A DNA stretch of 64,000 bases from Takakia lepidozioides (lineage: Eukaryota; Plantae; Bryophyta). The notes beneath the pieces were generated by a model. It was not told the origin of the DNA. It ran no database searches and was given only the letters and a program-made list of their open reading frames with translations. The translations under genes and the position numbers were made by a program. How positions within the stretch are numbered: position 1 is the stretch's first letter; each line of letters opens with the position of its first letter. This document shows positions 5,542 through 37,500 of this stretch, one piece after another. The DNA is taken from contig CM060731.1 of NCBI GenBank assembly GCA_030704615.1, positions 25,110,001 through 25,174,000 on the forward strand, given 5' to 3'.

Positions 5542-5680
5542 GTAGTCTCCTCCTTAGAATAAAGAGGAGCCAATAACAAAACGAAGTAGTCTCCTCCTTA
5601 GAATAAAGAGGAGCCAATAACAAAACGAAACAACGACCTCCTTAGAATAAAGAGGAGCCAATAACAAAACGAAACAACGA
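5542..5680. repeat. Tandem repeat, ~44-50 bp x3, upstream of KEG
   Basis: CTCCTTAGAATAAAGAGGAGCCAATAACAAAACGAA is present three times consecutively. Confidence 0.95.
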
Positions 5681-10300: not shown

Positions 10301-13300
10301 GGCGGAGCCATCACCGTCTTCCACTCTCGACTTTGGGCTTATAACCCAAACTTCTCTTCATCGCCTTGTATCTGAAGGGGACACCGAAGGAGTTCGGTAA
10401 GCCATCTGTTGTGATACATGCAGGGCGCCATTATTTGGTTTGTTGCAAGTAACCTTAGCAGCTTTCCATTTAGTATATGTGTAAAAGGAAATTCTCGCTC
10501 CCTCTTGGGTCTGGGTTGTTCTAGTTCTGTCCCTTGGCACTTTGGGCCTCCAAGCATCCAACAGATGGCCCTGTGGATAGGGCGCAATGCTGCCTTACAA
10601 ACGGTTGTGGGGTTAAAGCCACATAGGTGTATGTTGGATGTCACCCATTATGGCCAACCTAGCTATAAAAGGGGGTGGCTGGGTCAACTGGCCACCTAAT
10701 GTGGGTACCTAGGGACTTTCAAGTCCTTGGGGGAGGTTTGGGCCCGGTTATGGCCTTTAGGTGTCCACCTTCCAAATGGAAAGCAATAGCCCTTTGGGGT
10801 GAAGTGACCCCATAATTTATGCTTGCTTTGGCAGGAGTACACCTTCGTTGTTCTTCTTCCCCAAGAGGGCTTTGATGCAATGCTTTCTTATCGAGGCTTT
10901 CATTTTTAAATTTTTGCTTTTCTACCAGAAACAACCTAGAGCTACTTTGTTGAACAGAAACCAAGCCAAGAAATGCTATCTCTGGCAGGAACAGGGGGCA
11001 GAGAAGACAGCCCAAGGAGAGTGGTCAAATAGACCTTGTTACTAGAAAATACAACTCTGACAGAAGAGAAGAGGCAAAAACCAGAGACCTGTCATAACTC
11101 AAATCATGAGACGCCTACCTAGAGACTGAGACAGATAATTTCCACTCCTGCAAGCTCTTACTAAGGTGTCAGGTATAGGTTTTCACTATGGCTCGATCTC
11201 CTTGCAATGATTGTGGGGCTTGCAGGCTTCTGCAAGGTGGGGCGATATGTGCTAGATATCAGTGATGGTCAAATAGTGCAGAATCTATGAGATAATAGTT
11301 TCGACCCACCCACAAAACATTATTGGACTTTTCTTGAAGTTAGAGCTGCACACATGCAGGGACTTGCTGAGTAGAGCGGCCTCTGGCAAATCAGCAAACC
11401 CATTGGGAGTTCTGTTGGATGGTCGTAACGGGGAAGGCCAAACCGCTCTGCACATTGCAGCTATGCGTGGCTACTCAGAGATAGTTGAGGCCATTCTGGA
11501 ATATCCTGAGGCAGATGTAGAAGTTTTGGACAAAGACGGCGACACTCCAATTGTGTTTGCAGTGGCATCAGGGACGCCAGAGTGTCTTAAGGCTCTTATC
11601 AAAAAGGGAGCTGATGTGAATGCCCGGCTTAAGGATGGACTGGGCCCAGCTGTGGCGCATGTGTGTGCCTTTCACGGGCAACCTGACTGCATGCGGGTAC
11701 TACTGTCTGCACATATTTATTTCTTGTGCCATATGTTAAAGAGCTTCTACTAGTCCCTGTAATCAAGGCTTGTTGAAAAATCTATCTGTGAAGTGTGTTA
11801 CCTTGTCACAAGTGCCCTTGTCATTGTGGTGCAGTCTAGCAGGGACAGTGGCTCTAAATTCTGTTGGTTCATCAGCTGCCTCAATGTGCATGGTGATCCC
11901 GGCATGGTTGTATTTTTGAGCAAGGGAACTTGTAGCTGACTGCAGCTGTTGGCTGCAGGAGCTGCTCTTGGCCGCGGCTGATCCAAATACGGTTGACGAT
12001 GAGGGAGAAACAGTTTTGCATCGAGCGGTTGCAAAGAAGCACAGTGATTGCGCTATAGTTATACTCGAAAACGGTGGTTGCAAATCCATGGGTGTCCTTA
12101 ATGCCAAGGAACTCACGTAGGTCCTCATCCTGTTGCTCTGTTAATTACAGGGGTGTTCTTCAGCAGAGTTGAGAATGTGATCAAGCATCTTATAAAAGTG
12201 TAAAAATATTGCCTTCTGGGTTTTCGTGAGATAGACAGCTAATCACTGCTTAGCATCTCTTTTTGTCAGTCCTCCTTTTCTTTATGTCCAATGGCAAGAT
12301 ACTTCATGTCATATCTTTGTATTTCTTTTGACTGTGTCCTCCTTTGATGTAGATCATCACCATGCTGTGTCCTGGTAGGCCAGTTTCACTATAGGATCGG
12401 TTGTGCAGGCTTGTTTGTTTTCAGATTGCACAAATTGTACCTGAGTATTAGAGACATCAAGCGAATCATAGACTCGTCTATAATACAACTTGTAAGCAAG
12501 TCCCCAGTAAGTCCCTAGTCCCCTAGCAAGCAAGCCAGTCCCTTGTTGGAGTAACATGTAGCACATATCATGTATTAAGTTGTTCAATTTATGACAGGCC
12601 GTTACATTTGTGCACTGCAACTGCAAATGCGGCTGTTATGAAGAAGTGGGTGGAGATAGCAACACCTGAGGAGATTGCAGCTGCAATTGAGGTTCCCTCT
12701 TCAGTGGGGACTGCTCTTTGTATGGCCGCCGCTCTTAAAAAAGCCCACGAGGAAGGTCAGCCCCTGGGTATCCACTGTCTATGATAGAAAGCCTTACATC
12801 TATGCTCAGAGATTTTTTCTGTCTGCAACAAGAAATCTTAAGACTTGACAAATAGTCCTTATGGTGTTTTGCTGGTTACAAACCACTTGTAACACGTTGG
12901 ATGAAACCAGTCTGAACTGAAATTTTTGGTGCTTATACAATATTTCACAGAGGCAAGGGAGCTGGTGAGATTCCTATTGGCTGCTGGGGCTAATGGAACT
13001 GCGACAGACACCCAACGTGGTCAAACAGCGTTGCATGCTGCCGCCATTGCAAATGATGTGGAGATGGTGAAGGTAGGTTCTCACAATGACCAACTAAAAT
13101 TTCCAATCAGAGATACTTCTCACCTTATGAAGGAATGATAATCTTCATTAACCGAATCTGTGCAACTGTTGTGTACAGGATATATTGGATGCAGGTGTAG
13201 ACGTTGATGTCAGAGACATTCACACAACCACTCCCTTGCATGTTGCCCTGGCACGAGGCTCAAGGGATTGTGTGGGCCTGCTGTTAGAGAGGGGAGCCAA

Positions 13301-16300
13301 TTGCAATTTGCAGGTATATCAGTGTTATTCCCTATCTCAAAGAAATCCTCTGGTACTTCAAACTAGAGGTGTCAACATGCCAATTGTACCCACTGATAGA
13401 AATTCTGAAAATCTAGAAGCCCAATGGGTCTGTCTGCATAGCATACAATGAAAACAGAATCAAGTCACAGCTTGTGTTGTAATATTGTGAAATTTGCTTT
13501 TGACTGATTTGATTTCAAAATCCAAGTGAACGTCCAACTGATAGGAAGTTCTTTAATCTGTGAATGTGTTTGCTAGGACGATGAGGGAGACAATGCATTC
13601 CACATAGCTGCTGACATGGCCAAGATGGTTCGAGAAAATCTTGACTGGATTGCTGTGATGCTGCAACGCCCTAACGCTGCAATAGATGTCAAAAATCACA
13701 GGTCAGTGCTAGCAGACTGGGTGGGTATCTACGTGTTATTTGTTAGCAGCTTAAAGAGCATATGTGGCTTTATAGCTGGTGCATTGATGGAGAGCTTCCC
13801 ATCAAAGGAAATGTCACCCTCTCAGTTGCGTTAATGATGGGCTTCCCCAGCCGATGACATTTGCAAGATAATCTTCAGATGTAGCTATGGCTGAAAGTCC
13901 TACCACCAGTACCCCCACAGTTGAGCAAATTTGTTAGGAAAGGGAACCAAGAGGTACAGAAGAGTTGCCACCCAAGGTTAGCAGTACTGGCAGTTTGGAC
14001 TCGATACTACTGATTTCTTTATTGGAGTTATGCATATAATAAGCTAACTCCAGAAAGAAAGAACAAAGAAGTATGAAATTTATCACATCCACACGAGGCC
14101 CAAAGGGCCCAAGCGTCACATTAGAGATTGCTTGCAACCCTTAAAAGTGAAAGGCCTAAAAGATGGAGTGCCCGATGAGGGTAAGCAGCTAACCATCCTG
14201 ATCTACATAAATTGAAGGCTCTTGAAATGTTGAGCAGTCCCTCAGAGATAATAGAACACAGTAGAGAACAGGGGAAAAGAAAATGATATCTGTCTCCACT
14301 TCCTGCATGTTACTGAATCCTACCCTCGTATCGTCTGTTAACTTGATAGAACCAACTCTGATTGCCGAATCCCTATTGAGGACTTAAGAGCATGGCAGAC
14401 AAGTAGCTCTGACAGCTGAGAGAGAAAGAAGTACGTTTATTACTTTCCCCGGAGGCCCAAAAGGGCTAAGTGACGAAATAGAATCACAAAAGTAGACACA
14501 ACTTAAGTCTGAAACAGAGAGAGAAACAGAGAGACAGACAGATTGTGGAGGCTCAGCATGGAATACTTGTTAGCCATCAGGTTGAGGCTGTGGCTGAAGT
14601 GAGAATGGATAAATTGGAAGCAGTGGCAAAACCTTGCGGGACTTGCTGGAGGCCCTGCCCTGTGAGTGGATATCTGAAGACTTGCTCGACTCACTCTCCT
14701 CCAAGGGCATTCAACTTCCTCCAACCAAGTATGTAGTCTGCCTCTTAAACTGGCTCCCAGGTTGATCAACATGACACGTCTCTCTAGTTCTTGTTGTTTC
14801 TGAAGCTTTGTGGGCTTCTTGTGGTATGTCAGGAAGCTTTTGTTTTGTTTGTTCTTTCTTGCTTTGAGCAGTAGTTGCTTTTGGGCTGTTTTTTGGCTCT
14901 GATTTTGTTTCCTCTCTTGTGTTTTTTCCATTTTGTCCCATAAGCTCTTTGAGCTTTCTAATTCAACCTTGCAGGTTTGAGCCGGGAGATTGGGTGAAGT
15001 TTCGGAGGAGTGTGAAAGTGCCCAAGCATGGGTGGCAGGAAGCAAAGCCCCGCAGTGTGGGCTTTGTGCAAAGCATGGGTGAAAACGGCGAGCTCATCAC
15101 GTCATTCTGCACCGGGGACGCACAGGTTTTGTCTGAAGAGATTGTGAAGGTGGTTCCTCTTGACAGGGGCCAACATGTGCGATTGAAAGCTGATGTTACA
15201 GAGCCCAGGTATGCTTCAAAAAATTTCTGGTGTTTTTTCGTTTTTTGTCTTAATTTGTTGTGGTGGTAGTTACCCTGGTGGGCCAAATCCTTACGTCAGT
15301 AAATACTGGTGCATGTCACTTGTAGAACCATGTACAGAGAGTTCAGCTACATGGCTCACGTCTAACTCATTATGAGACCTTTTTGTCACCAGATTTTTTT
15401 TGTCTTCGGTCGCTGAATTACTCTTCTTGTAGTATGATTTCTGTTCCCCAAAAGAATGTAGGTTCTTATTTTGAACCATTTTTTGTGGTATGTTAATCGA
15501 ACAATAATCCTTATTGCTTGATATCTGAACATTAGCTGGAGCATGTTATGCTGGTCCAATCTCTGTTGGTATCCCTCATGGGATATCTACTGGGAGTTCT
15601 GAAGGATTCTATTGTGGTATACAATTGTTCGCTTTCTTGATCTGAAATTTTCTATCTAGAGTCTTGCTCCTTTATCCCCAGATCATCAACTACGCTTGAA
15701 ACATGTGTGATGAAATGTTGACTTCTGCTGTATGCACAAGTGGCTGTGGCGTTCCTGTTCCTCATTGAGCATTTAACATGACAACAAACTATGGAGGTCA
15801 GTCTGTGTTTGACCAAGAAATGAGAAAGATAAAGTGAGCTACAGTCTGGGTCATTGCAGGTATGGATGGCGTGGTCAGTCACGTGAGAGCATTGGCACAG
15901 TGCTCTGTATAGATGACGATGGAATTCTGAGGGTAGGCTTCCCAGGGGCTTCACGTGGCTGGAAAGCAGATCCTGCAGAGATGGAGAGAGTGGAGGAGTT
16001 CAAAATTGGGGACTGGGTGCGCATCCGCCCATCCCTCACAACAGCCAAACATGGACTGGGGCCAGTGACACCTGGTAGCATTGGAGTGGTTTACAGCATT
16101 CGACCTGATAACAGTCTGCTACTGGACTTGAGCTATCTACAGGGTCCATGGCATTGTGAACCTGAGGAAGTTGAGCCTGTGGAACCTTTTAAGGTACACC
16201 TCTACTGTTTCAAGACCTTTTCACTGTCCATGGATGGTGAACATTCTTGTCTAGGCATTTGAAGCACATCTAGGGTATACATATAGTGAGATCATGTTTC

Positions 16301-18835
16301 CATGCCACAGTTGTTGTTCATGACTTAGAACTCAGGATTATAAGCCCTACATTGGCATTGTTGTCCTCCCGATCGCAGGTTGGAGACTGTGTGTGTGTGA
16401 GGAGGTCTGTTGCTGAACCGCGATATGCATGGGGTGGCGAAACACACCATAGTGTTGGAAGGATTAGTGAAGTAAGCAGTGATGGCTTGCTTATGATCGA
16501 TATCACAGGGCGACCTATCTTATGGCAAGCTGACCCTGCAGACATGGAGAAGGTTGAAGATTTTAAGGTTTGTCTCCACCCCAACTTCTTATCTATTGGC
16601 TGAACAACTGTATCAGGTACCGTAAGAGAACACCCTACCTGGATTCTTCCTCCAGCATTATTGTTTTCAAAGGTCTTTTTGTGTGTGGGGGTAAGAAGCA
16701 CAATAATGGGTGTGCGTATTCAGAATTCTTGAGTCCTAGTTCTGAACACCCTTTTGATCTCTTCCATTTGTAGTTTTGTTGTCTTGCTTTGGTGCAGGCA
16801 GGTAGGTGGTACCTTGTTTCATGTGTGGATTTTCACTTTTTCTTCGTTCTTCATCCTTTGTCTGCGAGTCCATTAGCTTTCTGCATCTTCTCAGTGATAG
16901 ATGTGTGCCTATGTAATCACTCAATCCAATTCTTAGAACACGTTTTTAGTTTCTAAGAGTATCATCATTTGACACTACAGGTGGGCGATTGGGTTCGGGT
17001 GAAACCTTCAGTTTCCTCTCCCAAGTATGGGTGGGAAGATGCTACCCGAGGCAGCACTGGCGTTGTTTATTCTTTGGATGAAGAAGGAGATATGGGGGTG
17101 GGTTTTTGCTTCCGCAGCAAACCTTTCACGTGCTCTGTAACAGATATGGAGAAAGTCAACCCTTTTGAGGTGGGTCAAGAGATTCACATCTCACCCACTG
17201 TGACAGAGCCACGACTTGGCTGGTCAACAGAAACTTCAGCAACCACCGGAAAAATCTCGCAAATTGATATGGATGGCACTCTCAATGTGAGAATTTTGTG
17301 CTTGTTTGTCTTGAAATATGTACTGCAAAGTCTGGACAAGCACATCAAACATCTCTTTTCTGTTCAAAAGAATGTGAGGCAACTGCAGGCACAGGAGTCG
17401 GAAGTATGCACGTGAATAAGGTTAATGTGAATGGAATTCCTATTTTCCCACACTGGAAGGGAGGACTACTCCAGATCGAAACTTGATAAATAGATCACAA
17501 TCAAGTGCAATTTTCAATAGACTTGTGGAAACTGGTATGGTAGTAGTTCCTCCAAGCTGACTCTTACTGTTGTGGGGCTGGATGGACCAGGTGAAAGTTG
17601 CAAGCCGTAGTACTCCATGGAGGGTTGCACCAGGTGATGCAGAGCGGCTATCTGGCTTTGAGGTTGGTGACTGGGTGCGATTGAAGACCTCGTTAGGAAC
17701 CAAGCCCAGTTACGACTGGCATGGGGCTGGCAAAGAGAGTATAGCTGTGGTACATAGTGTTTCTGATGCTGGCTACCTAGAACTTGCAGGATGCTTTAGA
17801 ACAGGGCGGTGGATGACACATTATTCAGAAGTGGATAAAGTGCCAGTGCTTAAAATAGGGCAGCATGTGCGTTTTCAGGCAGGCATAACAGAACCTCGAT
17901 GGGGATGGAGGGGCTGTTCTTCTGCCAGTAAAGGTGTGATCATAGGGGTACATGCAGACGGGGAAGTGCGTGTTGCATTTTCTGGACTGACTGCCACATG
18001 GCGTGCGGATCCTGCCAACCTGGAGAAAGATGAGATGTTCGATGTTGGAGACTGGGTCAAAGTGAAGGAGGACATGGTTGAACCAAGGCATGGGTGGAAG
18101 GGTCTCCGTCCTGGGAGCATTGGAGTTGTTCAGGGGATGGCATATGAGAATGAGGAAGAGGTGGAAGGAACGGCTCTCCTAGTCGGCTTCTGTGGGGAGC
18201 AGGAGAGATGGCTTGGATTGCCACACGAAATAGAGAGAGTAGCACCTGTACGAATTGGGCAACAAGTTAGAGTGAAGGCGTCTTTAACGCAACCTAGGTT
18301 TGGGTGGTCTGGCCACAGCCATGGCGACCTAGGGACTGTCACTTCCGTTGATGCTGATGGAAGGTTAAGAATACATTCATCTGTTGGCTCACAAAAGACA
18401 TGGATGCTGGACCCAGCCGAGGTGGAAGTAGTGGAGGAGCAACCCATTCACATTGGGGAATGGGTAAGAGTTAGGCCTTCAATCCCCACCCCAGCCCACC
18501 AATGGGGGGAAGTTACGCACAAGAGTATTGGTGTTGTGCACCGCATCGATGATGAAGGGGACTTGTGGGTTGCCTTCTGCTTCCTAGAGAGGTTGTGGGT
18601 GTGCAAGCCAGCAGAGATGGAAAGGGTACATTCTTTCACGATAGGTGATGTCATAAGGGTAAAGCAGTCAGTGGTCACCCCTCGGTGGGGTTGGGGCATT
18701 GAAACATATGCCAGCCGTGGTGTTGTTGCAGGTGTTGATGCTGATGGAAAGTTGAGAATACGTTTTGCCAGGCGGGAGGGCCGGTTGTGGGTAGGAGATC
18801 CATCTGATGTGGAGCTTAATTCTGAGGCACTTTAG
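7308..18835 (+). CDS. KEG: E3 ubiquitin ligase KEEP ON GOING (RING - kinase - ankyrin repeats - HERC2-like repeats)
   Basis: Exons 7308-8020, 8833-9213, 9706-9936, 10271-10396, 11360-11696, 11959-12116, 12598-12755, 12951-13072, 13179-13313, 13577-13701, 14624-14728, 14975-15208, 15860-16193, 16379-16567, 16981-17286, 17591-18835. C3HC4 RING (CSVC..CGHSFCKEC..CPRC), kinase (MNLKPSNLLL, SDYG, APE), ankyrins (GQTALHIAA, TPLHVA) and repeated GDWVR..PRWGW..DPAEME units. Confidence 0.97.
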
Positions 18836-20112: not shown

Positions 20113-20383
20113 TATTGTGCCAATTTTGCAGAAACATGGAAGATTTGTTTTACCAGGTAGTAATCACAGATACCAACAAGATACAAGTTTGAATGACTTA
20201 TTCGATAACAAATGTTCTATCATTGATAATCTTATGTTGCAAATGATGGTGGACACGTGTTCAAGAGGTTGTGTGGTTCGAATAGTCCTTGTAGAGGTAT
20301 CAAAAAATTTGTCGTGCGCATACATATCGCTACACAACTACATCGCTGTCCAAAACCACATAACACATGTGCACACCACACTC

Positions 20384-20480
20384 TAGTATACCACTAGTTC
20401 GCCACTAGTCCAACCACTAGGCTACAACTAGTCAGTCACTAGGCTGCAACTATGTTGCCCACTATGGCAGTCACTAGTCC
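20384..20480. repeat. Short imperfect repeat array (ACTAG core, ~11-12 bp period) in the 3' non-coding part of the Gypsy element
   Basis: CCACTAGTTC GCCACTAGTC CAACCACTAG GCTACAACTAG TCAGTCACTAG GCTGCAACTAT..CCACTATG..TCACTAGTCC. Confidence 0.75.
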
Positions 20481-20745
20481 ACACAATCGTTCCCCTAGCT
20501 GGTGCTTAGGTCCCTCTAAGTTCAGGTAGCCACAAGATGTGATAGTTACCATAGCCTCACTAAGTCCTCCACCACTGTCCCTATTACACTCAAACTCGAT
20601 AGATCAAGAGGCCAGGTGCAAGAGTTGCCCCATCGTTAGTCGCCGTCTTGCAACCTGTGAACTTGAATTTGACATCTCGTGTATTGACTCCTATGAGCTT
20701 GGCCTCCCATGTCTTGTTAGCTGCCTCCAGTCATGTCCACTGCCA

Positions 20746-20900
20746 CTATTCCAAGCAGTGTGGACACAACCAATCTCCGTCAGGAACCTTCTCAAGAGGT
20801 GGTGTCAAGCATCCCATATGCCAACCCCTACGATCACACACCAGCATGGTGGCTGCCCCTTTGGCAGACCCACAGAGCATGCACCTCAAACCTGCAGGTA
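20746..20900 (-). pseudogene. PHD finger at the C-terminus of the Gypsy integrase
   Basis: CMLC..MLVCDR-RGWHMGCLTPPLEKVPDGDWLCPHC is a C4HC3 pattern with the typical H-x2-C..P..VP.G.W.C-x2-C end. The fourth Cys appears lost by a small deletion, and a frameshift separates it from the upstream KDHVRNCA segment. Confidence 0.88.
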
Positions 20901-20949
20901 CCACTGCCAAGTTTGGGTCAACTCTGCCATCGACAGTGGGAAGGACATG

Positions 20950-22200
20950 ACGCACAATTACGCACATGGTCCTTCCAAGTCATGCCATCCCGACCCTCCA
21001 AGATCAGGACTCCTGAGGGTAACACCTCTCGAACCCTCAGAATAACACGTCCTGCAGTGATATCCAGGGTCGTAGGAGTAGTCTGCTGCAAATAAACATA
21101 GTCACCAGGGCTAAACCTCCGAACCCCATGACAATATCATCCACCACGTATAGTGGCATACCTCAACGTATCACGGTGTTGTGCAATGACAAGGTTCTCA
21201 AAAGCCATGGGCATGACTTTCTTGAACAAGTCTACACGCTGATCACATGCACGTACCCACACGTCCGGATCATCAAGGTTAAGGACTTGAGTTGTGTCCC
21301 TACGAATGGCTGCATGCAAATCCGGCTCTCGGCGAAAGAGAAGGAAATATGGTGAGAAAGATGCAAATGATGCTTGTTTGCTGATCCTGCAGCCCATGGC
21401 TAACCAAGGCACCTGAAGATCCCAATCTCCTAGGTGTCATTTCTGCAAGCCATACTTGCGCAAACCCCTCTTCACCGTCTGGACAACTCTCTCTACCAAG
21501 CCATCGGCCTCAGGATGATCCCGAGAAGTGGTGCGGTGGTCTATCAAGGCTTTATCACACAAAGCCTGAAACTCCCCCAAGAACTCTCTCCCTTGGTCCG
21601 TGAGTTCCTCAGCTGGAGCACCAAATCGGCTAAGCACACGATCCAAGAATGCATACGCAGCCCCCTCACTAGCCTTGTCAGGCAATGGAACCAACTCAAT
21701 CCACTTGGAGAAGTGTTCCACCATCACCAACACATATCTGTGGTGACGCATAGTCAGTGACAATGGTCTTGCGAAGTCAAGACTTCACCTGTAGCCCAAT
21801 CCCATGATTGGTAAATTATGTAACTGTGGTGTAGGGGCGTTAAATGAAGCACGCACCCTGTCACACACCATGCACCTAGCCACGAACTGTTGCACCTCTG
21901 TATGCATACCACGCCACCAATACTGCCCCTGCAGTAAACTGTGAGTGCGTCGCACTCCAAAATGCCCCAACTCCTCATAGGCATGCCGCACTAACCGTGC
22001 ACGCTGTGTGGGGTGAGGCACAATCCTCACCCGACCATCCTCCTATACTCGGAGTAGATGTATCCCCTCCCACTTGAACCTCTTGACTCATTGCAGGATC
22101 TGATCCCTCTCCTTGGCAGTCACGGTGGTTGTTATGTCTCCAGTACGGAGGTAGTCCAACACAGCCGAATCCTCATGTATATCTCTGGTACCACCTGGCT
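20950..22200 (-). pseudogene. Retroelement integrase (HHCC zinc finger + DDE core + C-terminal domain), with premature stops
   Basis: ..LGHFGVRRT..YWWRGM..CMVCDR (zinc-binding region); SLDFA (D), LTDQGREF (D), DGLVERVVQT (E); SPYFLLFRREP; FSPGDYVYL. In-frame stops at 22088, 21785, 21437, 21137. Confidence 0.92.
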
Positions 22201-22261
22201 CATCACTAGCCTCAAACACTCCGTCTACAGTCATCCCTGTTGTAGGTCCAACCTGACCTCC

Positions 22262-22500
22262 CAGAGATCTTGAGTCCTCATCTGAATCAAAGACCTCTTC
22301 ATGTCACTGTATCTATAGGGTCTCCGAAAGATTGGCGTGTCAGTGGCCAACTCAATATGGATCTCTTGACCCTTCAGTGCTCCCAAGTTCTTCAAACTGA
22401 AGGCAAAACAATTCTTGTAAGCCCTCAGGAACCGCCGTATATGTCGTCTCTCTCCTCCGGTGACAATGGGTCCAATGTCAGGCTCCCAATTGTCCTCCGT
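22262..22500 (-). pseudogene. N-terminal lead-in of the Gypsy reverse transcriptase, truncated by an internal deletion
   Basis: Manual translation: ..ERRHIRRFLRAYKNCFAFSLKNLGALKGQEIHIELATDTPIFRRPYRYSDMKRSLIQMRTQDL. The sequence then jumps to the pre-integrase linker (GGTRDIHEDSAVLDYL); no YxDD or RNase H motifs lie between. Confidence 0.8.
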
Positions 22501-22849
22501 AACTATAACCTTAAGTCCAGTGGGCTTAGAGGTAGAGGACGCATCCAGTGGTTGCTATGTTGCAACCTCTTGAGTTGTACTCCCTACTGCTCAGTCAATG
22601 ACAAGACCTCATCTTGCCCCATCATCTCATCCTCGAGGACTTCCTCAACCTGAGAAAAATCCCCAGCCTCATCCATCACCGCCACCTTGGCTGCCAACTC
22701 CTTCTGAACCTCGAGCACCTCCCACGTGTGCCATGGATGCCTGCACCCCGTGGTCCTCACATGCTCGCCCCCACTCACTGCCTGTACCGTCTCGGTAGGC
22801 AGAGAGACCATCGAGGGAAGTGTACACCGCACTCTGCGTTGCTCAGCCA

Positions 22850-23810
22850 TAGCCAAGCTGATAATCCAGGTCAAGCAATTGAGATCCATTGTTTGCCCCA
22901 ACACCTGACGACGTGATGCCTCAGAAAGAGACGACACCGCCGTGGTACCAGTGGTAAAACCCATTGCCCGCTCACGCTCGTCAGCATTAGGCTCCACTAA
23001 TTGCTGCAACTGAGCATCCCACAGGAGACCAAATCCACTATCCCGGAAAGCATGCGATCCTGGGAAACTGAGCAGTATAGGTAATGTTGCTCATGGTTGA
23101 CCCACCTTGTTGACCCCTGCCAAAGGCGAACGGTCATCGTGTCTCACACGCTGAGACTGCCTCCCTGTGCCCAGAATGCTATCCACTGTGAGATGTGCTG
23201 GCCGCTGCACCCCATCAAATGCACGCTTGAGCAGTGCGGGTGACATCAAGTTAGTCCACCAAAGCCGTGAACGATGAGCCCGTGACCCCACTGTAGCTGC
23301 ATCTAGCAACACTGCTGATCCAAACCACAACCGGACTTGATGCACACTGGCCATCACCCTGACCCGAGAATCGCCCATCAGTGGCACATTCTCCAAGATG
23401 TATGCTGGAGATACAGCTTGATGAAGCTGCAAGTGGCGCAAACCCCGCACCATCTCCCAAAACAGACCCGACCTCGAGTCTCGCAATCCATTGCCATGCC
23501 CGGCTGATGAATGCCCTTGGCAAGGCCAACCTGCCACTACCAGATCAATGGAGCCAACCCGTTCCAAATCCTGCGCCCCCAGCAACGAAATGTCTGCTAG
23601 CAATGCCTGCTGATATCCACGAACTGCAGACACCGGCAACAACTCAGGGTACCGCTTCACCAACTGAGCAACATGGCGAAGTGAAACGCGTCGTGCAATC
23701 TCATCCCTCTCCACATACAGGTAACGCCGAACTTGTACACCTGCCTGTAACACAGCAGCCAATCCGGTGCTGATCCCACCAAATAAGTCCAGAAGACAAA
23801 TGCCTTCATC
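22850..23810 (-). pseudogene. C5-cytosine DNA methyltransferase domain (DNMT3-like, unpermuted) inside the pol reading frame
   Basis: Motif I LLDLFGGIS (23775-23789), II YLYVE, III ADI, IV DLVVAGWPCQ (catalytic Cys 23520-23522), SGLFWE, VI ILENV (23385-23393), VIII AHRSRLWWTNL. Past one in-frame TGA (23091-23093) come IX ERERAMGF and X RRQVLGQTMD. Confidence 0.93.
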
Positions 23811-24134
23811 CGGATACTGCCACACAATAAGTGTGGTGTCCAATGATGACAACTGAGGTGGTCCTGGTGCAATCCCCGCACTCTCCTCCTCTCCTGACGG
23901 TACAAAAGCCTCCACCCAGGCTTGTTGCACCCGTCGATCAGCATCCCGCTGCAAATCCTTGCTCGTGCCCCACAATGGAGTCTGAGCAACTATGGTAGAC
24001 AACTCCGCCATACCATACATGCCATCCTGCTCTCCCGGAGGTGTCACATCCTCTGAATGAGCGTTGCCCTCAAGCAACTCTCCAGGCCAACTCACTGCCG
24101 CTGTGAATGCTGCTAGTGTCGGCATCTTGCCTCG

Positions 24135-24563
24135 CTAGGCAACCGCAACTCCTCCTATGAACGTCACATGGAGCTGCACACGCCGGCCCTCCCCTGACTG
24201 CCATCCAGGTCTATAAGAAGCCGACTCCTCCCAAAAATCCAGGGTGAAGCCCATGGGGTACAACGTTGCCCCACCAACCAGGACATCGTACGAGACCGCG
24301 TCTGTCACAATGGCCTTGGCTCGCATCACTGAGCCATCTGTAGGATGATCCAGCCGTAGTCTGATAGCCAACTCACGCCGTGTCATGCCCCGAGCCTGCT
24401 CCGATCCTCCCAGAGACGTCTGTATCTGGAAAGGACAAGGCTCCATATCCGCCTTCGTGAGGCCCAAGCCTGCAATAGCAGCTCTGCCCAACATCAATGG
24501 TTGAGCTCCTGAGTCCAACAAGACCCGCAATGGCCGGCACCTCTTGCTTGCCGGTCCATTCAA
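24135..24563 (-). pseudogene. Retroviral-type aspartic protease of the Gypsy element
   Basis: RVLLDSGAQPLML (DSG active site) and YDVLVGG. Same frame as the DNMT ORF, separated only by TAG at 24135-24137. Confidence 0.85.
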
Positions 24564-24749
24564 ACAGAAAATGTCATCCTAGTTGTCTAACATGACAACT
24601 CCAGGTGTCACCATGGTGCGCTCAATAGCTGGCCTAGCTGGAAGCTCCATAAACCTGGCAGCTACAGCTTGCCATGGCGCCGCCGTGGCAGTCTTGACCC
24701 TCAAATCCGAGGATCCCTCCGGCACTACACCTCCCACTATCTTCACAGA

Positions 24750-26265
24750 AGATATGTTAATGGGTTTGTGGTCGGTCTAATATGCTTATTTTGTTCCCAA
24801 CAAACATTGTTGTGTAGGAGAATTAATCCATGTGTGATCGAATTGAAAATTGTAATATGTCAAAAGTTCATTGAACATAAGATGGAAGTGATATGGTTTG
24901 TCATGAACAAATGAAGTGAGTCACATTATTGGGTTTGCGAAGATTGATATTAAAACTCCAATATAAATGATTGGATAATTTTTTGGTGTTTTATTCTACA
25001 AACTTTGTAATATGTGCAAAATGTCGTGAAGAGAAAACAAATAAGATTTATATATTGCAATTACAAATATACCTATGTTAGATGTCGCAGGGATGAATTC
25101 TGCACCACTATGTGTTACGATGTCGTAGCTTTGAAACGAGGTGGTTTCATCGTATAAAATTGTCATTCCATGTCCATCGTAACACACTAGTTTTGAGAAA
25201 CGATCATTAGCTCTATATAACAACAAATTTCGATTGTTTTGGGGGTGTAAACGAGTTTCATTTAAACATAGTATGTGATATGTTCATATGTTGTAGTGGT
25301 TCATAACGTCGTGATAGTAATTTTGCATTGAACGAATATTTAGCGATTGAATGATTATATGTGTGCGATATAGCAATTTCAAATTTGCTGTATATAGTTC
25401 TCATTTGGCAGTCAATCATTTGTCGCCTATTTATTTCTTCACGTATGTTATTGTCTAGATGGAAATTCTTCTCGTATAACGGAACTAGGAGATATAAGTT
25501 TTGTCGTACTCTTATGCGTGATAAAGTTGTGTATATTAGTCCTGCGGCGAGTTGACTTGGGAACTGAGTACGAGCTATTATGTGGTTAGAATTGTCCGTG
25601 AATTGATTTTTTTGTTTTTTTTTGCTGCAATTGGAGTCCTAGATTTGCATATATCATTGTTGCTTTAGTATACGTGTGAATAAGAAGCTCGTGTTTTTTA
25701 TCTTATTGGTTCATTAGAAAATCTATCCAAATCAGTGGGTACGACAACTGAGGTTGTGTTGAGCTCTATTTACTAAATCATCTTGGATGTTATAATTGCT
25801 TCCACATAATTCTACTAGCATGTTGGGTTACACGAGCACAAAGATATGCAAATCCGCAATTTTTTTGGCATCTAGAGAGAGTTCATGTACGCCACACCCG
25901 AGGAATGATAGAGGATTATTGCTTTGAATGAGAAAATCTGTCCTTAGGTTCGATAAAAAATGGTTTTATTGTGTGCCTAGGTATGTGCGTTTGTGAAAAA
26001 CAAGTGAGGGACTGTTGGATCCGACGACAGTGGCCTGTAGCATACATTGTTTATGTTCTTAATGTCATCAATGTAATGTCGCTCGAAATCAATTTAAAAT
26101 TTCAATAAACGTTTGATCAGTTTGTCTCATGACCTTTGTTGATGTGTAATCGCAGTTTATCATGCCAACAATTTATGTCGCATATATTCATTTGATCTTG
26201 TTTCATTTTGAATGTCCAAAGTATCTCTAATATAAGAGACCTAGTAAGAATCACTGGTTGTATGT
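24750..26265 (-). mobile_element. Highly degenerate Helentron/Helitron2-type ORF: C-terminal half of a Pif1 helicase fused to an AP endonuclease (EEP) domain
   Basis: Manual translation across frameshifts. Pif1: motif III-like SDSY*V..RD.WTF (~26235-26260), motif IV KVMRQTDQTFIEILN*FR (~26085-26135), PHLFFTN..HN, NMLVE..NYNIQDDLVN, RTQFPSQLAA, motif VI YTTLSRIR..NLYLL. EEP: IQSLNIRS, HILCLNET (~25254-25275), IAIYKS, IG(D)FNINL (~24945-24965), DHTWIN, AY*TDHKPI (24759-24776). Confidence 0.82.
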
Positions 26266-26478
26266 GTAGGGTGGAAGAGGATAAGGGGCCCATGTTTGAA
26301 GGGGGGTGTGAGGATTGGATGATGGTCCAGGAGTTCACTAGGGCCAACATGGAACGTGAAAAAGCCTGTATTAAGGCTAAGAAGAGGGCTCGGAGAGTGC
26401 TCGGAAAACTGCACACCCCATGCCAGAGACATAAATACATGGATGGTGCAGCAGTAGGACCTAGCTAGGCTTGGAGAA

Positions 26479-27280
26479 GTGTCCCGTAGCGGAGCCGCCG
26501 CCGCCACGGCTAGGGCCACCGTCATCTTCTTCTCCCCGGATGTACCAGCCACATGTCTTTTGAACGCCATTGTTTTCGAATGCATGATGAGGAATTTGAA
26601 AGCTATAGCAAGGAAGATGGGACTTGCTACGGATGAGGGGAAAGGTGAAGAAAATGGTTCGAAGCAAAGACGTGTCAAACCAAAAAGTGGAGATCAAAGT
26701 AGGAAGCCAAAGCAGGAAGCGAAAGTGAAAAATGTGCAAGCCAGTGTGACGATCGGCATTGGAGGAGGAGATATTGAGGAGGTCTGTTTGAGAAAAATGG
26801 ATCAGTTCATACATGATAGCTGTGTGGTAAGTTTGTGCGCCTTTGAAAAAGGTGACACTCTCTTGCACTTGCACATCCAGATGGTTTGTCAGGTACACAC
26901 TTCCAGCATTCAAATGCTTCACAAGCAGATTAAAAAACCATTTGGGATGGTTAGATCCACACTTGGCACTACCTGGTTTTGCATAAAAAAACCGGGTTTG
27001 TTTGTCGCATCAGAATATTTTGGAGCGTGCACAAATGTGGCAGAATCACAAGATGCGTAGACAGATTGCAACCACTCTTCCAGGTGTCCTTATGCATATG
27101 TTGCGATCTGGATAGTTTTATCCTGCTGCGGGGTGGGTTGTTCATTTAAAAAATAATGACATGGATTTCCATCGTTCGCAGTCAATTTGGAAATCAATGG
27201 TTTCGTCACATGACCTCGAGATTGTTGATATAGCACGCTTTTTCTACGAGGCATCTTCCCATATTTCAAGGCTTCAATGA
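26479..27280 (+). mobile_element. Degenerate Replitron-like HUH (Y1) transposase
   Basis: ASVTIGIGGGDI..MDQFI..LCAFEKGDTLLHLHIQMV (HUH at 26866-26874), then after frameshifts HLGW and KNRVCLSHQNILERAQMW..TTLPGVLMHMLRSG*FYPAAGWV..IWKSMV..DIARFF. This resembles the Replitron Rep and C-terminal domains as I recall them. No helicase is fused, and the catalytic-Tyr segment appears deleted at ~26980. Confidence 0.75.
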
Positions 27281-32000: not shown

Positions 32001-34499
32001 CTTTTCTCTGGCTGGGAATTTGGATATGAGGTGGCAATCCCACAATCGGCTCTTGGATGGTTGATATCCCACGGGACTATTTTCTCAAGCTATATCATAG
32101 CCAAAGTTTGCATGGAACAGTCAAAAAGTACTGTTCTGTTCTGAGATAATACCTGTCTGTCTGCAACTCTAAGGGCATTGGGAAGGTTTAGGGTGGGCTC
32201 TCGCAGTCTGCGGATAGAGACTGGTAGGTGGGACAACCTACTCAAGATAGCCAACCCCTTACAGGTGTTCCACTACAAGGATCAATGTCTGTCTTTAACC
32301 CATATTTGTCTGAATTGATCTCATTTCTTTGTTCCAAATGTCAAGTTCAGTCTAAGAATGCTTGGCAGCATATCTGCATCTTAGACAATCCCTTGTTCAG
32401 TAGTTGTTTGTGGGCTGCTTGTTGAGGGCCCTACTCTCTTGTTTCCTGCTTTCTCATCCCATAAGCTCTTTGAACTTTCTGCAGATGTTATAAAGTGTCA
32501 TTTCATTGCATTTCATGTCTTTCTTCGTAAGTCTATGGCAGCAGTCTTGAGGACATACTTTGTGTCCTTCATATTGTTGTTTCCAAGTTTGTTGAAAATT
32601 TTATTTTGTCAACAAATTTGGACAAGCCTTGTGAGAGGGCCCGGATGTCATTTCTCATGGAGCTCCACAGCTATGCCATACTAGAAGCCGGACAGGTAGG
32701 CAATTGATAGATAGGTGTGGTGCCCTTCGTTGGTGGGTACCAGAATGAATTGGCAAATAGAATCGTAGCATTTTTGTGAAAATTGAATGCTTGTATAATG
32801 GAAATAAAGTTGACCTGGCCATCAGGCAACCATTCGTGTTCTGTTCTTGTCCAGCTGCAATGATGTTATCATTTCCTTGAGCAAATGCAAGGGTTTGCCT
32901 TATAGTTTGCTGTCTTCGTTAGAGGTGTGAGTAGCATGGACTTTTTCATCGATTCGGGACAGAAAGCTCAATTATTGTATCGGTGGTTTTGTATCAGTCC
33001 ATATCTGGTGAACGATTTGAAAGCACAACGCCTTCTTCAGGATCGCCGCAAAGTTTATGCTGTGCGTATCTTCTGATGTCCCATTTTCCGTTAAGATGCT
33101 GAACCCAACGTATGATCACTTGACTTTTTCATGGTCCAAATATAGACAGGAGTCACCTAAAGAAAATAAAATTGGATTTTGCAGACCTCTATTTAGCACA
33201 TTGACAGGTTAACCAGCAGGTATATAGTGCAGTGTACCGAGTCTGTACTGAGGGAAATGATCTTGTAGTCACAAGTGTAATGCTTGTCGATTACCCTGAC
33301 GTTGTAGTCTTATAGCCATTTACCTTTGGGGATAGTCTCTTCTATGGGCAAAAGCTAGGGTTGTACTTGCCAAGGCTTGCCCACTGCGATTTGCACCATG
33401 GCATGGATGAATTGCTTGACCTTAGAGTCTGTATCTTTCACCGTAAACAGTTGAAGGAGAGAATATGGGCACATTGTATGCAGGTTTTAATTGGAGTATT
33501 GTATTGAACCTAGAAACAAAGAAAGTGTTGTAGGGCTTATATTCTTGTCCTTCTTGCAGCGGCTGGAAGAGTACGGTATTCCTGTTCCAACCTATGCACT
33601 AGTAAACCGAGATTCTCCCGACCAAGATGTTGCATATTTTGGGGAGGAAGAAGACTATGTTGAAGTAAATGGCATGCGCATCATGAAACCCTTTGTGGAG
33701 AAGCCTGTGGATGGTAAGATTTTATCCCTTGAATCTGCTAACCTGTTGGATGCTTGGTCGCAACCAACGGTGGAGGACCTGTGTATTTGTAACTCTAAAC
33801 TTCAAAAGTGCAGAATTTGCTCCTTGTTTACAAATGGTTTATGGAACCAATTCCCTTGGATGCAATAGGTTTCTTCTCCTCTTCTAATCTTTCAGACCAG
33901 TCTTTGTGAGCATCTTGGTCTCAGAGCCATTCTCTCTTGTTGGCAAGCCAACAACGCCGCCTAACCCGTAGACACCTCCAGAATTCAGATAAATGGATAT
34001 GCAGGTAAATGACTCCTGATATCCATGTTGAGCTGAAGAAACATATTTGCTTTGAGGTTCAGATTGAAGTGGTTAGTTTAACTTTTATTATTGATCAGAC
34101 TTGAAAGTGGTGGACTATGATGAGTTGCTCATGATACTCAGTGTTTGGTCCCTGCCAATGTATCCTATTGCATTTCCAGGGATCTTAGGGCTCGAGTCCA
34201 CGATTCCTGATGTTTTTTCAACCTCTCGTGAGCAGGGGATAACCATGGTGTGATGATATACTATCCAAGTTCTGCTGGTAGTGGTATGAAAGAGCTTTTT
34301 CGGAAGGTAAGAGGGTGACACAGACATCGAAACTTTTCTTTTTCTATTTTTGAGAAATGAAATGTTACTTTATAACATCCACGGAAAGCTCAAAGAGCTT
34401 ATGGGACAAGAGAAGGGAAGGAAGTGAATCAAACAAATGTTTAACAGTTGAGAGGGACACAGGCACAGAAATGAAATGAAATGGTGCTTTATTATGTCC

Positions 34500-34549
<50 letters not shown>

Positions 34550-37500
34550 CTCATAAGACGTTGTTTGCCGTAGCCTTGTGGCCATTGACCCCGCGCCCAG
34601 TTTGAGCGGGAACAAAAGGAACAGAACCTACCTCTGTCAGGGGCTGACGTTGGTAGTAAGACCTGAAGACATTTACGAAGTCCGGGATATTCTCATCAGA
34701 GAGTGACCCTCTTCAGGATCATCAAGAACATAGTCCCTGCACCTCTGTTCACCAATGGCCCTGTTGGGGTGTAATTGCTGGGCAGCCTTTACACAGCGGA
34801 TTGGTGCTTGTGTGAACGAATTTCTAGAGGAAATCTAGAAATCCCAAACTGATTTTTTATACCAAGGTAAGTTCCAATACTGGAGTGAGCCCCTCACAAA
34901 TGTAGTGTCTGTTCCCTGTTGTTCCGCCCAAACTGGGTGTGGGGTCTATTGCCACAAGGCTACACAAACATCCAAAAATCGTGGGGACATAAAGTGGTCC
35001 CCTAGTCCAGCCATTGTTGAGTGTTTCAACTCTCCTTCACCATGACTTGCAGCAGGCAACTGGAGGTTTTTCTGCTGGCTTTTGCTGCACTTGACTGTGT
35101 GCATGGATGTCCGATCTGCCATCCTCAGACCCTGCTGATGGTAGCCCTGTCATCATTGGCATCATACCCAAGTTCTGGACATGGCAGACTAGTAGACCGA
35201 AATGGCATGATACTCTATAACATCCCTGCTGAAAGAAATGAAATGACATGATACTTTAGCGCGAAAGAAATGAAATGAGATGAAATGGTGCTTTATAATG
35301 TCCGCGGAAGCTCATAGAGCTTATGGGACAAAATGGAAGAAAACATGAGAGAGGAAACAAAACCAGAGCCAAAAATATAAACTACTGCTCGAGTGATTGT
35401 CTAAGAAAGAAAGAAAGAAAAGAAAAGAAACTTCATAACCTCCATAGGGGCCAGAGGACCTATGGAAATGAAATGCAATCAGGCCTATCACCCCTAGAGC
35501 AAAGGAAAATGTATTTGTTTCCAAATGTGGAGGATGAGTTGAAAAGTCTGACAATTGGGTCCTTGCATTGGTGTTATGTAGGTGGGGAATAGGTCCAGTG
35601 AATTCCATCCGAATGTAAGGAGAGTGCGAAGAGAAGAATCATACATTTATGAGGAGTTCATACCCACTGGAGGAACTGATGTCAAGGTTTAGCATTGTTA
35701 GATTATACCTAGACATACCTATTTGCTGTACTGTTCTACAGGGCCAATTGTACTTAACTTAGCAGCCAGTGAAGTTTGTGTCCAGAAAGATGAAATCAAC
35801 AGTAAATGACAAACGACCATGACACCACATCAGTTGCTCACCAAATATCTTGAGGAGATGTGATGTATGTTCTGATTGCGAGTGATTCTCTTTAAGCTTT
35901 TTTACCAGACTCTAAATTGTTTGCGCCTGCACTGCAGGTTTACACGGTAGGGCCTGAATATGCTCATGCAGAGGCACGCAAGTCCCCTGTTCTTGACGGC
36001 GTCGTTATGAGAAGTGCTGATGGCAAAGAGGTACTAGCTGGAGTGTGTATGGATGTCTGGGAGGTATTGTAGTCTTTACAGGCTAATGTCAGTATTGTAT
36101 AGAGACTTCGGACACAAAAGGAAGGGAAACACTGGGTCTTAAGAGGGCTAGGCAAACATCACCTTTCGACATGGCTCATGTTCTTTCTTGGCAAGTGACT
36201 TCATGGCACAGGATGAACATGCTGTCAGCACCACTCCCACAAAAAGAAGGGGAGGGCCTCCATCTCCATTAAGATGCCCTGAGCAAGAGGGACAAGTGCA
36301 GCTGCATTACCACCATAGTTGCCCTTAGCAAGTGAAATTATCAATCCATATGTGTTTGTGATCATCTGGGTTGGGCATTTGTAACCAAAGCAATGCCAAA
36401 GCAGTCTCACTTGTGCCATACTGGTCTTGACTTGTGGACCATGCTTGCTGTTTGGAACCTAAGACCAAGTCACCCAAGTAACTAGCAAGTGCAAAGTTTG
36501 TTGATTTTATGCCAAAAGTAAAATATTTAGCTTGTTGAATGTATCAGGTACGGTATCCGGTCTTATTGACACCAGCAGAGAAGCAATTGGCACGAGAAAT
36601 CAGTGTGGCCTTTGGCCAAGCGGTAAGCCAATGAGATGAAAGAAATGAAATGGTACTTTATAACGTATAAAGAAGAAAGAAAATAAGGGAAAGAAGAAGG
36701 GAACTTTACACAGGGGGCATGTGGACCCATGGGACAGTATAACAATCCAAGGACTGCTTTTCGAATGCTGTCACCTGAAGATGACGTGCCTTAAAGTATG
36801 TACGTGACAACGAATGTTCTCAGGAAGCGTCAAGAGCCCATGGGACTGAATAAAGTAAGAAGATAGTGATATTTATCACACTCAGCTCATAGAGATGGAG
36901 TGCTTAATGCAGATAACACTTCGGGTTCTCATGCTGGAGGCCTGTGCCAAGACAGCCAATCTCGAAGAATACAGTAGTATTTCGTATGCAGAGCCAAAGA
37001 ATAAGAAATATGTTGTGTCTCCACTTGTGGGTGATATTTAGACAACTTCTACATCAGCTGTGGCATTCCATTTTCTTCCCCCAATCTGAGAGACTTCTTT
37101 TTCTTATGGACTCTTTGGGCTTTATGACGACACCCCTCCCAGCCAAGTTGCAGTTCTAAGTCCTCCTCAAGGATAAATCTTACAGCCCAATTATTTGTTT
37201 GTGGCTCTTTCCATCTCTTCGATGCATTGGGATGATTCAGGGTCCACATGATCTGAGGATTAAGACTGGGAGATGGGGTAAGCTGCAGCTTGTATACTTG
37301 TGCCATACAGAACAGGCAGGAGATTGAGACTGAGAACACTTATTTCACTGTCCGTTCTTCTACAAAATCTGGGGCTGCTATTTTTTCCTATTTAAAGACA
37401 GCCAATCCCTTATAGAGGCGTTCAAATGTGAGGATCAGAGATACCGTGGAGCATATCCATATGGGCTCTCAACCTTAGAGAATCTGGTTTTGGTGGCTGG

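Follow-up and report, generated by a model that had tools for sequence, protein, structure and literature searches.

A decayed Gypsy-type retrotransposon with a DNMT3-like methyltransferase in Takakia and a predicted readthrough stop in its clade

The 64,000-nucleotide stretch of Takakia lepidozioides DNA analyzed here (the window: assembly GCA_030704615.1, contig CM060731.1, positions 25,110,001 to 25,174,000) contains a decayed, 5'-truncated Ty3/Gypsy-type retrotransposon of the KnitGypsy-Dnmt3 lineage, which carries a cytosine DNA methyltransferase (DNMT) between its protease (PR) and its reverse transcriptase (RT). This copy is dead. In intact relatives, the DNMT is followed by a conserved amber stop, and we consider it probable that this stop is read through, that the DNMT is packaged in bulk, and that it methylates the cDNA of the element itself. 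Why a transposon carries an enzyme of the silencing class has been an open question since 2018, and the known cases come from organisms with poor genetics. Intact Gag-protease-DNMT gene models are present in Marchantia polymorpha, and therefore the question becomes testable. All positions are window coordinates unless a relative is named, and the retroelement lies on the minus strand throughout. L numbers denote loci from a metagenome scan, and P numbers denote proteins of the family set. Published work is cited from the accessible parts of each source.

Results

Minus-strand translation of window 24776-20746 gives the order protease, C5-methyltransferase, RT lead-in, integrase (IN), and PHD finger. 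This is the domain set that the original prediction had described from the sequence, and the Pfam search that it proposed agrees (DNA_methylase, E 8e-12; Integrase_H2C2, 4e-15; rve, 7e-11; PHD, 4e-8). The Asp_protease_2 match remained below the cut-off (E 0.026), and the LLDSG motif of the protease is visible directly in the translation. Protease and DNMT share one frame that is broken by point stops only (24581, 24137, and 23093), as had been proposed. The further claim of a full DNMT holds for the linear motif order and for the intact PC and ENV motifs, but the domain is interrupted by the stop at 23093, ahead of motifs IX and X.

The copy contains eight decay stops, three in the protease-DNMT frame (one of them within the DNMT) and five in the integrase, as well as frameshifts after the DNMT and ahead of the PHD finger. 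An internal deletion from 22249 to 22213 skips ~1.3-1.4 kb (about 1.35 kb) that is present in L017, L026, and L002, and removes the RT core along with the complete RNase H (RH). In the PHD finger, a two-residue gap takes out the fourth cysteine. By tblastn with relatives, we found no similarity to gag anywhere in the window, the 5' end of the element being lost, and a repeat search of the window revealed no long terminal repeat (LTR) pair or other repeat flanking the copy. What remains are the protease, the RT lead-in, an integrase with its D-D35-E motif, and the 3' end, comprising the polypurine tract and a repeat segment that ends at 20310. CpG depletion was uninformative because the elements (0.28-0.70) are no more depleted than an exon of the neighboring host gene KEEP ON GOING (KEG, 0.42).

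With the DNMT as query, we retrieved 37 long proteins, among them many Marchantia polymorpha models at ~70% identity and proteins from Calypogeia fissa, Sphagnum fallax, and S. troendelagicum. A search with the RT side added Riccia sorocarpa (RT/integrase side only), Closterium, and Klebsormidium, and a representative protein library yielded 218 clusters at E < 1e-30. In the metagenome scan, 352 of 450 pattern matches were relatives, the best 80 of which were examined as loci. Since every locus was fetched by its DNMT, sister elements lacking this domain are invisible here. One locus, L006, is 100% identical to the S. fallax model P0034 over 141 residues, and the Marchantia model Mp4g09160 (P0006) has an intact DNMT domain. 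Among the best 80, the order gag-CCHC-PR-DNMT-RT-RH-IN-PHD recurs in dozens of loci, and the intact relatives L031, L033, L017, and L026 show the order gag-PR-RT-RH-IN with a DDE integrase. The window-type element is without introns. The lineage occurs in land plants (Marchantia, Calypogeia, Sphagnum, and Riccia) and in Closterium, and it has a sister group in chlorophytes. A scan of viral contigs gave weak phage methyltransferases only (best E 2e-14 over motifs I-VI).

The family comes in two layouts. The DNMT is located between PR and RT in Klebsormidium (P0160), Closterium, and the bryophytes, and between RH and IN in Scenedesmus (P0105 and P0234) and, as a partial sequence, in Haematococcus (P0486). 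A quick DNMT tree without outgroup, built from 108 of 145 rows after a 92% redundancy filter, parts these layouts with the single exception of P0211, a protein without RT and RH whose label is uncertain. It places the window in a group of 12 rows with Marchantia, Calypogeia, and Sphagnum-type sequences (SH-like approximate likelihood ratio test, SH-aLRT, 99) and K. nitens P0160 (GAQ93235) within the 35-row PR-DNMT-RT side (SH-aLRT 89, a branch without a support star). Judging from its architecture, P0160 is presumably one of de Mendoza's KnitGypsy-Dnmt3 copies. An equally quick RT tree of family members only (93 of 117 rows, without outgroup or reference RT lineages) splits off the RH-DNMT-IN type with support 100 and puts K. 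nitens P0403 and P0422 on the window-type side (100). The suspected kinship with Klebsormidium elements is thus borne out on both trees, and the recurrent order together with the agreement of the trees establishes that the DNMT is an integral constituent of this Gypsy-type element throughout the family, as had been argued from the window copy.

Three observations on related sequences may be recorded here. The RH-DNMT-IN sister group is large (P0105, P0234, P0030, P0033, and ~70 further proteins) and contains the DNMT and a C-terminal PHD finger in one single open reading frame (ORF); we met no description of it in the literature searched. The clade of L049, L058, and L059 represents a second DNMT-bearing family at ~40% identity, with the same termini and no stop past the DNMT, and is ~80% identical to the Calypogeia RT protein P0440. 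Finally, one family protein with RT, integrase, and PHD finger (P0491, in the cluster of P0376) is annotated as uncultured cyanobacterium, likely owing to eukaryotic contamination of the bin.

By sequence and by predicted fold, the methyltransferase domain is closest to DNMT3. Profile searches against solved relatives ranked DNMT3A first (E 1e-28) and DNMT3B second, with weaker scores for DRM (1e-16, in two stretches), HhaI (1e-9), and DNMT2 (1e-4). The predicted structure of the intact L031 domain (predicted local distance difference test, pLDDT, 96) best matches DNMT3A/3B-DNA complexes (TM 0.73, Z 29, root-mean-square deviation 2.5 over 269 residues), followed by HhaI (Z 24). These results agree with the original assignment as DNMT3-like, and the linear, unpermuted motif order in the window rules out a DRM. 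In the available text on Figure 4 of PMC5890265, the KnitGypsy DNMT is likewise described as branching with host DNMT3.

The family DNMT is under purifying selection. Ratios of nonsynonymous to synonymous substitution (dN/dS) are 0.10-0.12 among L031, L032, and L033 (0.12 at dS 0.26 for L031-L032) and 0.30 for L049-L058. The catalytic cysteine and the motif VI glutamate are present in 108 of 108 rows of the DNMT alignment, and the second arginine of motif VIII in 107; within the 36 rows of PR-DNMT-RT type, this cysteine, the motif VI glutamate, and the motif IX glutamate are invariant. The proline of the PC motif is replaced by glutamate in 49 of 108 rows (12/36 of the PR-DNMT-RT type and 37/72 of the RH-DNMT-IN type). 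Besides the DNMT, Pfam scans of the first ORF (ORF1) revealed no targeting domain and no DUF3444.

In the intact relative L031, ORF1 (976-5082, 1369 aa) encodes gag-CCHC-PR-DNMT and is separated by one stop from ORF2 (5086-8226, 1047 aa), which encodes RT-RH-IN-PHD in the same frame. L033 and L002 contain the same stop. A Sphagnum-type junction probe matched 38 of 81 sequences searched, and all 38 contain a stop at this junction (28 TAG and 10 TAA), followed by CAACCC in 35 cases; a check for duplicates reduced 35 of these 38 loci to 29 distinct copies. Other, divergent families carry TAG CAACCA (window 22557-22549 and L002), TAG CAGTTA (L031 and L032), or TAG CAATCA (L033). The window, L002, L031, L032, and L033 therefore match exactly, as sequences, UAG followed by CAR-YYA and an in-frame downstream ORF. 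CAR-YYA is the readthrough signal of tobacco mosaic virus (TMV), and it functions in plants (PMC2754532). After decay stops, CARYYA occurs in 0 of 741 cases (CARYYN in 12 of 741), and among in-frame hexamers in 19 of 6350.

The hexamer is held at the nucleotide level: the second encoded residue varies (Pro, Leu, or Ser) and the upstream context differs. Downstream of the stop, the first methionine is encoded at codon 3, 5, 14, 48, 85, or > 100, and none is conserved. ORF1 proteins from Marchantia, the Calypogeia cluster, and others mostly terminate 57-187 residues past the DNMT. Stop-bearing families group together as a single clade on both trees (DNMT, 21 rows, SH-aLRT 92; RT, 17 rows, 99). 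RNA folding 3' of the stop gave z values of -0.4 to -2.9 and no shared conserved structure. Programmed frameshifting from the DNMT into RT was rejected because the intact relatives are in frame; the shift in the window copy is decay.

Since the amber stop lies after the DNMT, this domain is the last one of a Gag-protease-DNMT frame, and its expected output equals that of Gag. Retroelements usually hold Gag:Pol near 20:1 (PMC2194720). In the window clade we infer the DNMT at the Gag level and RT-integrase-PHD at the readthrough level, and a conserved stop of the leaky type would imply that, in this one clade, selection has favored an abundant DNMT. The notion of one pol polyprotein, put forward for the window copy, is not supported here because the conserved stop parts the DNMT from RT-integrase-PHD; the fusion exists in other branches only.

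The repeats of the element are split. In six long loci (L042, L026, L049, L054, L058, and L067), a repeat A of ~290-340 bp stands at the 5' end, and B-A-B follows the polypurine tract, which is G-rich in the relatives. Element termini are TGTCATG…CACGACA. At the internal junction of B with A, the sequence is CACGACA-NN-TGTCA (L031 included) or, in L033, CACGACA-NN-TG, with a palindromic CA-NN-TG. Seven of nine complete copies are flanked by an exact 4-bp target-site duplication (TSD). L018 and L028 consist of A…B only, with TSD, and the 3' end in the window resembles them. This layout and the palindromic junction suggest a circular cDNA that is opened by the integrase; the integrase of foamy virus cuts circle-junction palindromes (PMC1180852). 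The A|B joint is variable, ranging from -3 to +16 nt within one clade; that of L036 contains sequence found immediately inward of the 5' end. In 12 of 23 5' ends, from both clades, the bases that follow A are complementary to A near position 164, and because of this pairing reverse transcription may be self-primed. Folds of the primer site gave z values of -3.5 and -4.9 for segments that were chosen after the pairing was seen.

Concerning classification, the relatives show the TG…CA ends, polypurine tract, and TSD of Ty3/Gypsy elements, and the window shows the tract and the 3' end. A pair of complete, identical LTRs flanking the element was not found (the arrangement is A…B-A-B or A…B), which makes the group a non-canonical member of the Ty3/Gypsy type, like KnitGypsy-Dnmt3. 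We rejected an identity as DIRS/PAT element, given that all complete relatives have an rve integrase, a 4-bp TSD, and no recombinase family (Pfam). An identity as Troyka was rejected as well: these elements have CG…CG ends and a 3-bp TSD and are described from animals only (PMC12440569), as opposed to the TG…CA ends and 4-bp TSD found here.

In both layouts, the PHD finger forms the C-terminal end of the integrase. It lies ~600 (window) to ~1,100 residues (intact copies) from the DNMT. Its top PDB matches are CHD4, KDM5B/KDM5A PHD1, ATXR5, PHF21A, and BAZ2A, which we take to recognize the H3 N-terminus when K4 is not trimethylated. An acidic residue ahead of the first cysteine occurs in algal-type rows and not in the bryophyte clade. 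The proposed analogy to the ADD-plus-catalytic design of DNMT3 appears weak because the PHD finger rides on the integrase as a C-terminal appendage remote from the DNMT; by position it resembles the chromodomain of chromoviruses more than an ADD domain. Table 1 collects the features of the window copy.

Table 1. Parts of the retroelement copy in the window
Feature	Position	Strand	Basis
Linker remnant between Gag and protease, with the 5' break (gag and 5' repeat gone)	24534..24776	-	tblastn of relatives starts at 24773-24761
Aspartic protease (LLDSG)	24156..24533	-	translation, Pfam, relatives
DNMT3-like C5 cytosine methyltransferase domain, premature stop 23093	22872..23807	-	72-74% identity to closest relatives
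Post-DNMT linker, one decay frameshift	22558..22871	-	stop 314 nt past DNMT end vs 105 codons in L002
Conserved amber stop and CAR-YYA hexamer (TAG CAA CCA), predicted ORF1/ORF2 readthrough site	22549..22557	-	
RT lead-in, N-terminal part only	22234..22548	-	
Junction of ~1.35 kb internal deletion (RT core, RNase H)	22213..22249	-	
Integrase (H2C2 finger, D-D35-E core), five in-frame stops	20945..22213	-	
C-terminal PHD finger, different frame, fourth Cys deleted, stop 20748-20746	20746..20943	-	
Polypurine tract	20490..20499	-	matching site and surroundings in L042, L026, L006, L017
Terminal repeat segment B, ends CACGACA (element 3' end), no A repeat after it	20310..20489	-	

The element ends ~1.5 kb downstream of the last long exon of the multi-exon KEG E3 ligase gene (window 7302-18835, plus strand). 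A KEG exon shares 79% identity with Marchantia, 78% with Calypogeia, 70-74% with lycophytes, fern, and conifer, and 65% with Chara. In a tree of 15 rows, containing no named moss or hornwort KEG, the window exon falls outside the euphyllophyte clade. By itself, the exon thus indicates a land plant outside the euphyllophytes, likely a bryophyte.

AT-rich decayed frames directly adjoin the 5' break of the retroelement (24780-26160, minus strand). They gave no Pfam match, and from their motifs we assume a resemblance to PIF1 helicase and AP-endonuclease (Helitron/Helentron-like). A degenerate ORF at 26458-27060 (plus strand) matches a Replitron HUH endonuclease weakly (E 0.0067, below the cut-off). 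The exons at 33491-45639 (plus strand), two of which were searched in Pfam without a match, presumably encode a VIP/PPIP5K inositol pyrophosphate kinase-like protein, judged by motifs; the introns of this gene are long and filled with repeats. A dispersed repeat family (~75-190 bp, GAAAT-rich ends, both orientations) extends over 32400-56080 and probably represents truncated 3' ends of a long interspersed nuclear element (LINE), one copy adjoining a LINE-like ORF at 49039-49629. An intronless frame of 618 codons (56831-58687, minus strand) shows a weak match to 2OG-Fe(II) oxygenases (E 0.0018); the exact sequence of its 608-aa protein was absent from the protein collection searched.

Discussion

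The cycle that we favor for intact members of the lineage would begin at the ribosome. Most ribosomes would halt past the DNMT, with DNMT and Gag produced at a ratio near 1:1, and the minority would read through. The protease would free the DNMT within the particle, where reverse transcription would be self-primed by pairing with repeat A near position 164. The resulting cDNA, with an LTR composed of B+A, would be end-joined to a circle, and the integrase would open the palindromic CA-NN-TG in the LTR to give A…BAB or A…B inserts. The PHD finger of the integrase would bind the H3 N-terminal tail and bias the choice of insertion site. The DNMT would lay CG/CH methylation on the cDNA, and the new copy would arrive pre-marked. 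Methylation of cDNA has already been put forward as a hypothesis by de Mendoza 2018 for DIRS-borne DNMT3 (PMC5890265).

In a wider version, which we offer tentatively and consider less likely than not, these elements would form a Viridiplantae-wide, uncatalogued Gypsy-like group. A TMV-type leaky stop past the methyltransferase would make a captured DNMT3 a bulk particle protein, one per Gag, that methylates self-primed cDNA including the CG-containing LTR palindrome; a PHD-guided DDE integrase would open the circle at this site and insert a pre-methylated copy, in a cycle between those of DIRS and LTR elements. The split repeats do hint at integration by a DDE integrase from a circular intermediate.

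Several observations weigh against one or another part of this scheme. The large Sphagnum-type family has CAACCC, which is one base off the consensus, and TAA in 10 of 38 loci, and the TAG TAG CCA of L040 is a poor fit. Fused, stopless arrangements occur in the clade of L049, L057, L058, and L059, in P0028, P0092, P0250, P0380, and P0396, and in the Closterium models; DNMT in bulk is therefore not required across the lineage. For the decaying Sphagnum-type pair L005-L006, dN/dS of the DNMT is 0.75, and dS is saturated across families. The DNMT of KnitGypsy-Dnmt3 produced no methylation in yeast, a result that its authors regard as inconclusive (PMC5890265). L054 lacks a TSD, that of L067 contains one mismatch, and the self-priming pairing is absent from 11 of 23 5' ends. 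Although opening at either junction would be expected of a circle with two LTRs, none of 23 5' ends is of the form A-B-A; speculatively, methylation of one of the two circle-junction sites could explain this absence.

The element and its stop could be as described and the abundant Gag-side DNMT nevertheless act on chromatin instead of cDNA, at the insertion site, at host loci, or on rival elements, or by damping the activity of the element itself and so sparing the host. Not all of a bulk ORF1 product need be packaged, the PHD finger matches H3-tail readers, and effects on the host and on the insertion site are among the options discussed in de Mendoza 2018 (PMC5890265). We nonetheless think this unlikely, since the DNMT of ORF1 has no targeting domain of its own by Pfam, whereas host DNMT3s bear DUF3444 (PMC6453930), and its place behind the protease in a Gag fusion would favor the particle. 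A little less credible still is the expression of ORF2 by splicing, a subgenomic RNA, or reinitiation, with the stop context an inherited coincidence. The REXdb authors noted plant groups whose first ORF is GAG or GAG-PROT (PMC6317226), and the in-frame stop of Tca2 is not bypassed through its flanks (PMC2194720); the imperfect Sphagnum-type hexamer and the lack of a shared RNA structure 3' of the stop point the same way. Against this stand the conservation of the hexamer as nucleotides while the residue and the upstream context change, the exact frame of ORF2, and the scattered positions of its first methionine.

Retention of the DNMT for a role other than catalysis, in structure or in the binding of DNA or RNA, or else for the methylation of RNA, would accommodate the inactivity of the Klebsormidium enzyme in yeast and the frequent loss of the PC proline. 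It seems improbable in view of the invariant catalytic cysteine and motif VI glutamate, the near-invariant second arginine of motif VIII, a fold nearest to DNMT3-DNA complexes, and the far lower score of DNMT2. We give almost no credence to a one-off host DNMT3 fragment captured by an ordinary Gypsy copy or to a chance nesting of elements. The window copy is heavily rearranged and adjoins other transposon debris, but the family search recovered the same order in dozens of loci and in named algae, liverworts, and mosses, and the DNMT and RT trees are concordant, which together refute this explanation; the domain also has neither introns nor DUF3444.

Should the wider version be true, replication intermediate between the DIRS and LTR types could be dissected in Marchantia. 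Bryophyte genomes are rich in intronless DNMT3-like sequences, which DNMT inventories must count as element-borne. LTR pipelines that require paired TG…CA LTRs, as for REXdb (PMC6317226), would miss the group because its repeats are split.

Comparison with known systems

The closest known system is KnitGypsy-Dnmt3 of Klebsormidium nitens (PMC5890265), which shares a Dnmt3-related domain, intronless and unpermuted, within a Gypsy element, a DIRS-like repeat layout with Gypsy domains, and purifying selection. It differs in being described from one alga with the DNMT in the Pol ORF together with RT, whereas here the lineage extends to land plants and TAG-CAR-YYA cuts the DNMT from RT. A DNMT in one ORF with RT and RNase H occurs in P0028, P0092, P0396, and L049, and not in the window clade. 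The PHD finger is absent from the main text of that paper, and its accessible parts do not mention a PHD, readthrough, TSD, or priming. They cite Iyer 2011 for RT-linked DNMTs, where algal cases may already be listed. Two later papers, including bioRxiv 10.64898/2026.05.21.726589, use "streptophytes" for Gypsy-DNMT3, and land-plant copies may already be recorded somewhere. Our literature search, which did not reach supplementary trees, Repbase, or subscription journals, returned no account of the element in land plants, of its PHD finger, or of its readthrough site.

The idea of a writer plus a reader has a precedent in EpiLTRs (bioRxiv 10.64898/2026.05.21.726589), LTR retrotransposons that likewise join a DNA methyltransferase to a chromatin reader. 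These elements of Cymbomonas and Euglena combine DAM, a DNMT sister to DNMT4, and a chromodomain; the accessible text mentions no PHD or land plants, and its authors set EpiLTRs apart from streptophyte Gypsy-DNMT3. SymbioDIRS-Dnmt3 of dinoflagellates also has a DNMT3-type domain in Pol and split repeats, and methylates CG de novo in yeast (PMC5890265); it is an independent capture with a tyrosine recombinase, in contrast to the DDE integrase and 4-bp TSD found here. Host PpDNMT3a/b (PMC6453930) have a linear DNMT3-type catalytic domain, as the element does, and de novo CG and CHH activity has been shown for moss host DNMT3; they are multi-domain genes with DUF3444, which the element domain lacks.

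Chromoviruses (Tcn1/Tf1-Sushi and Chlamyvir; PMC6317226) resemble the element in having a histone reader at the integrase C-terminus and, for Tcn1, self-priming. They differ in having a chromodomain instead of a PHD finger, ordinary paired LTRs, and no methyltransferase; neither PHD nor Marchantia is mentioned in the accessible text of the REXdb paper (PMC6317226). TMV, SIRE1, and murine leukemia virus share a single in-frame stop between ORFs and the CAR-YYA signal (PMC2754532, PMC2194720). In that group the stops are at gag/pol or pol/env, whereas here the stop lies past the protease and an enzyme, and the DNMT falls on the abundant side. Relative to these systems, the new features are the land-plant range, a predicted readthrough that places the DNMT on the Gag side, and the permuted-LTR pattern of integration.

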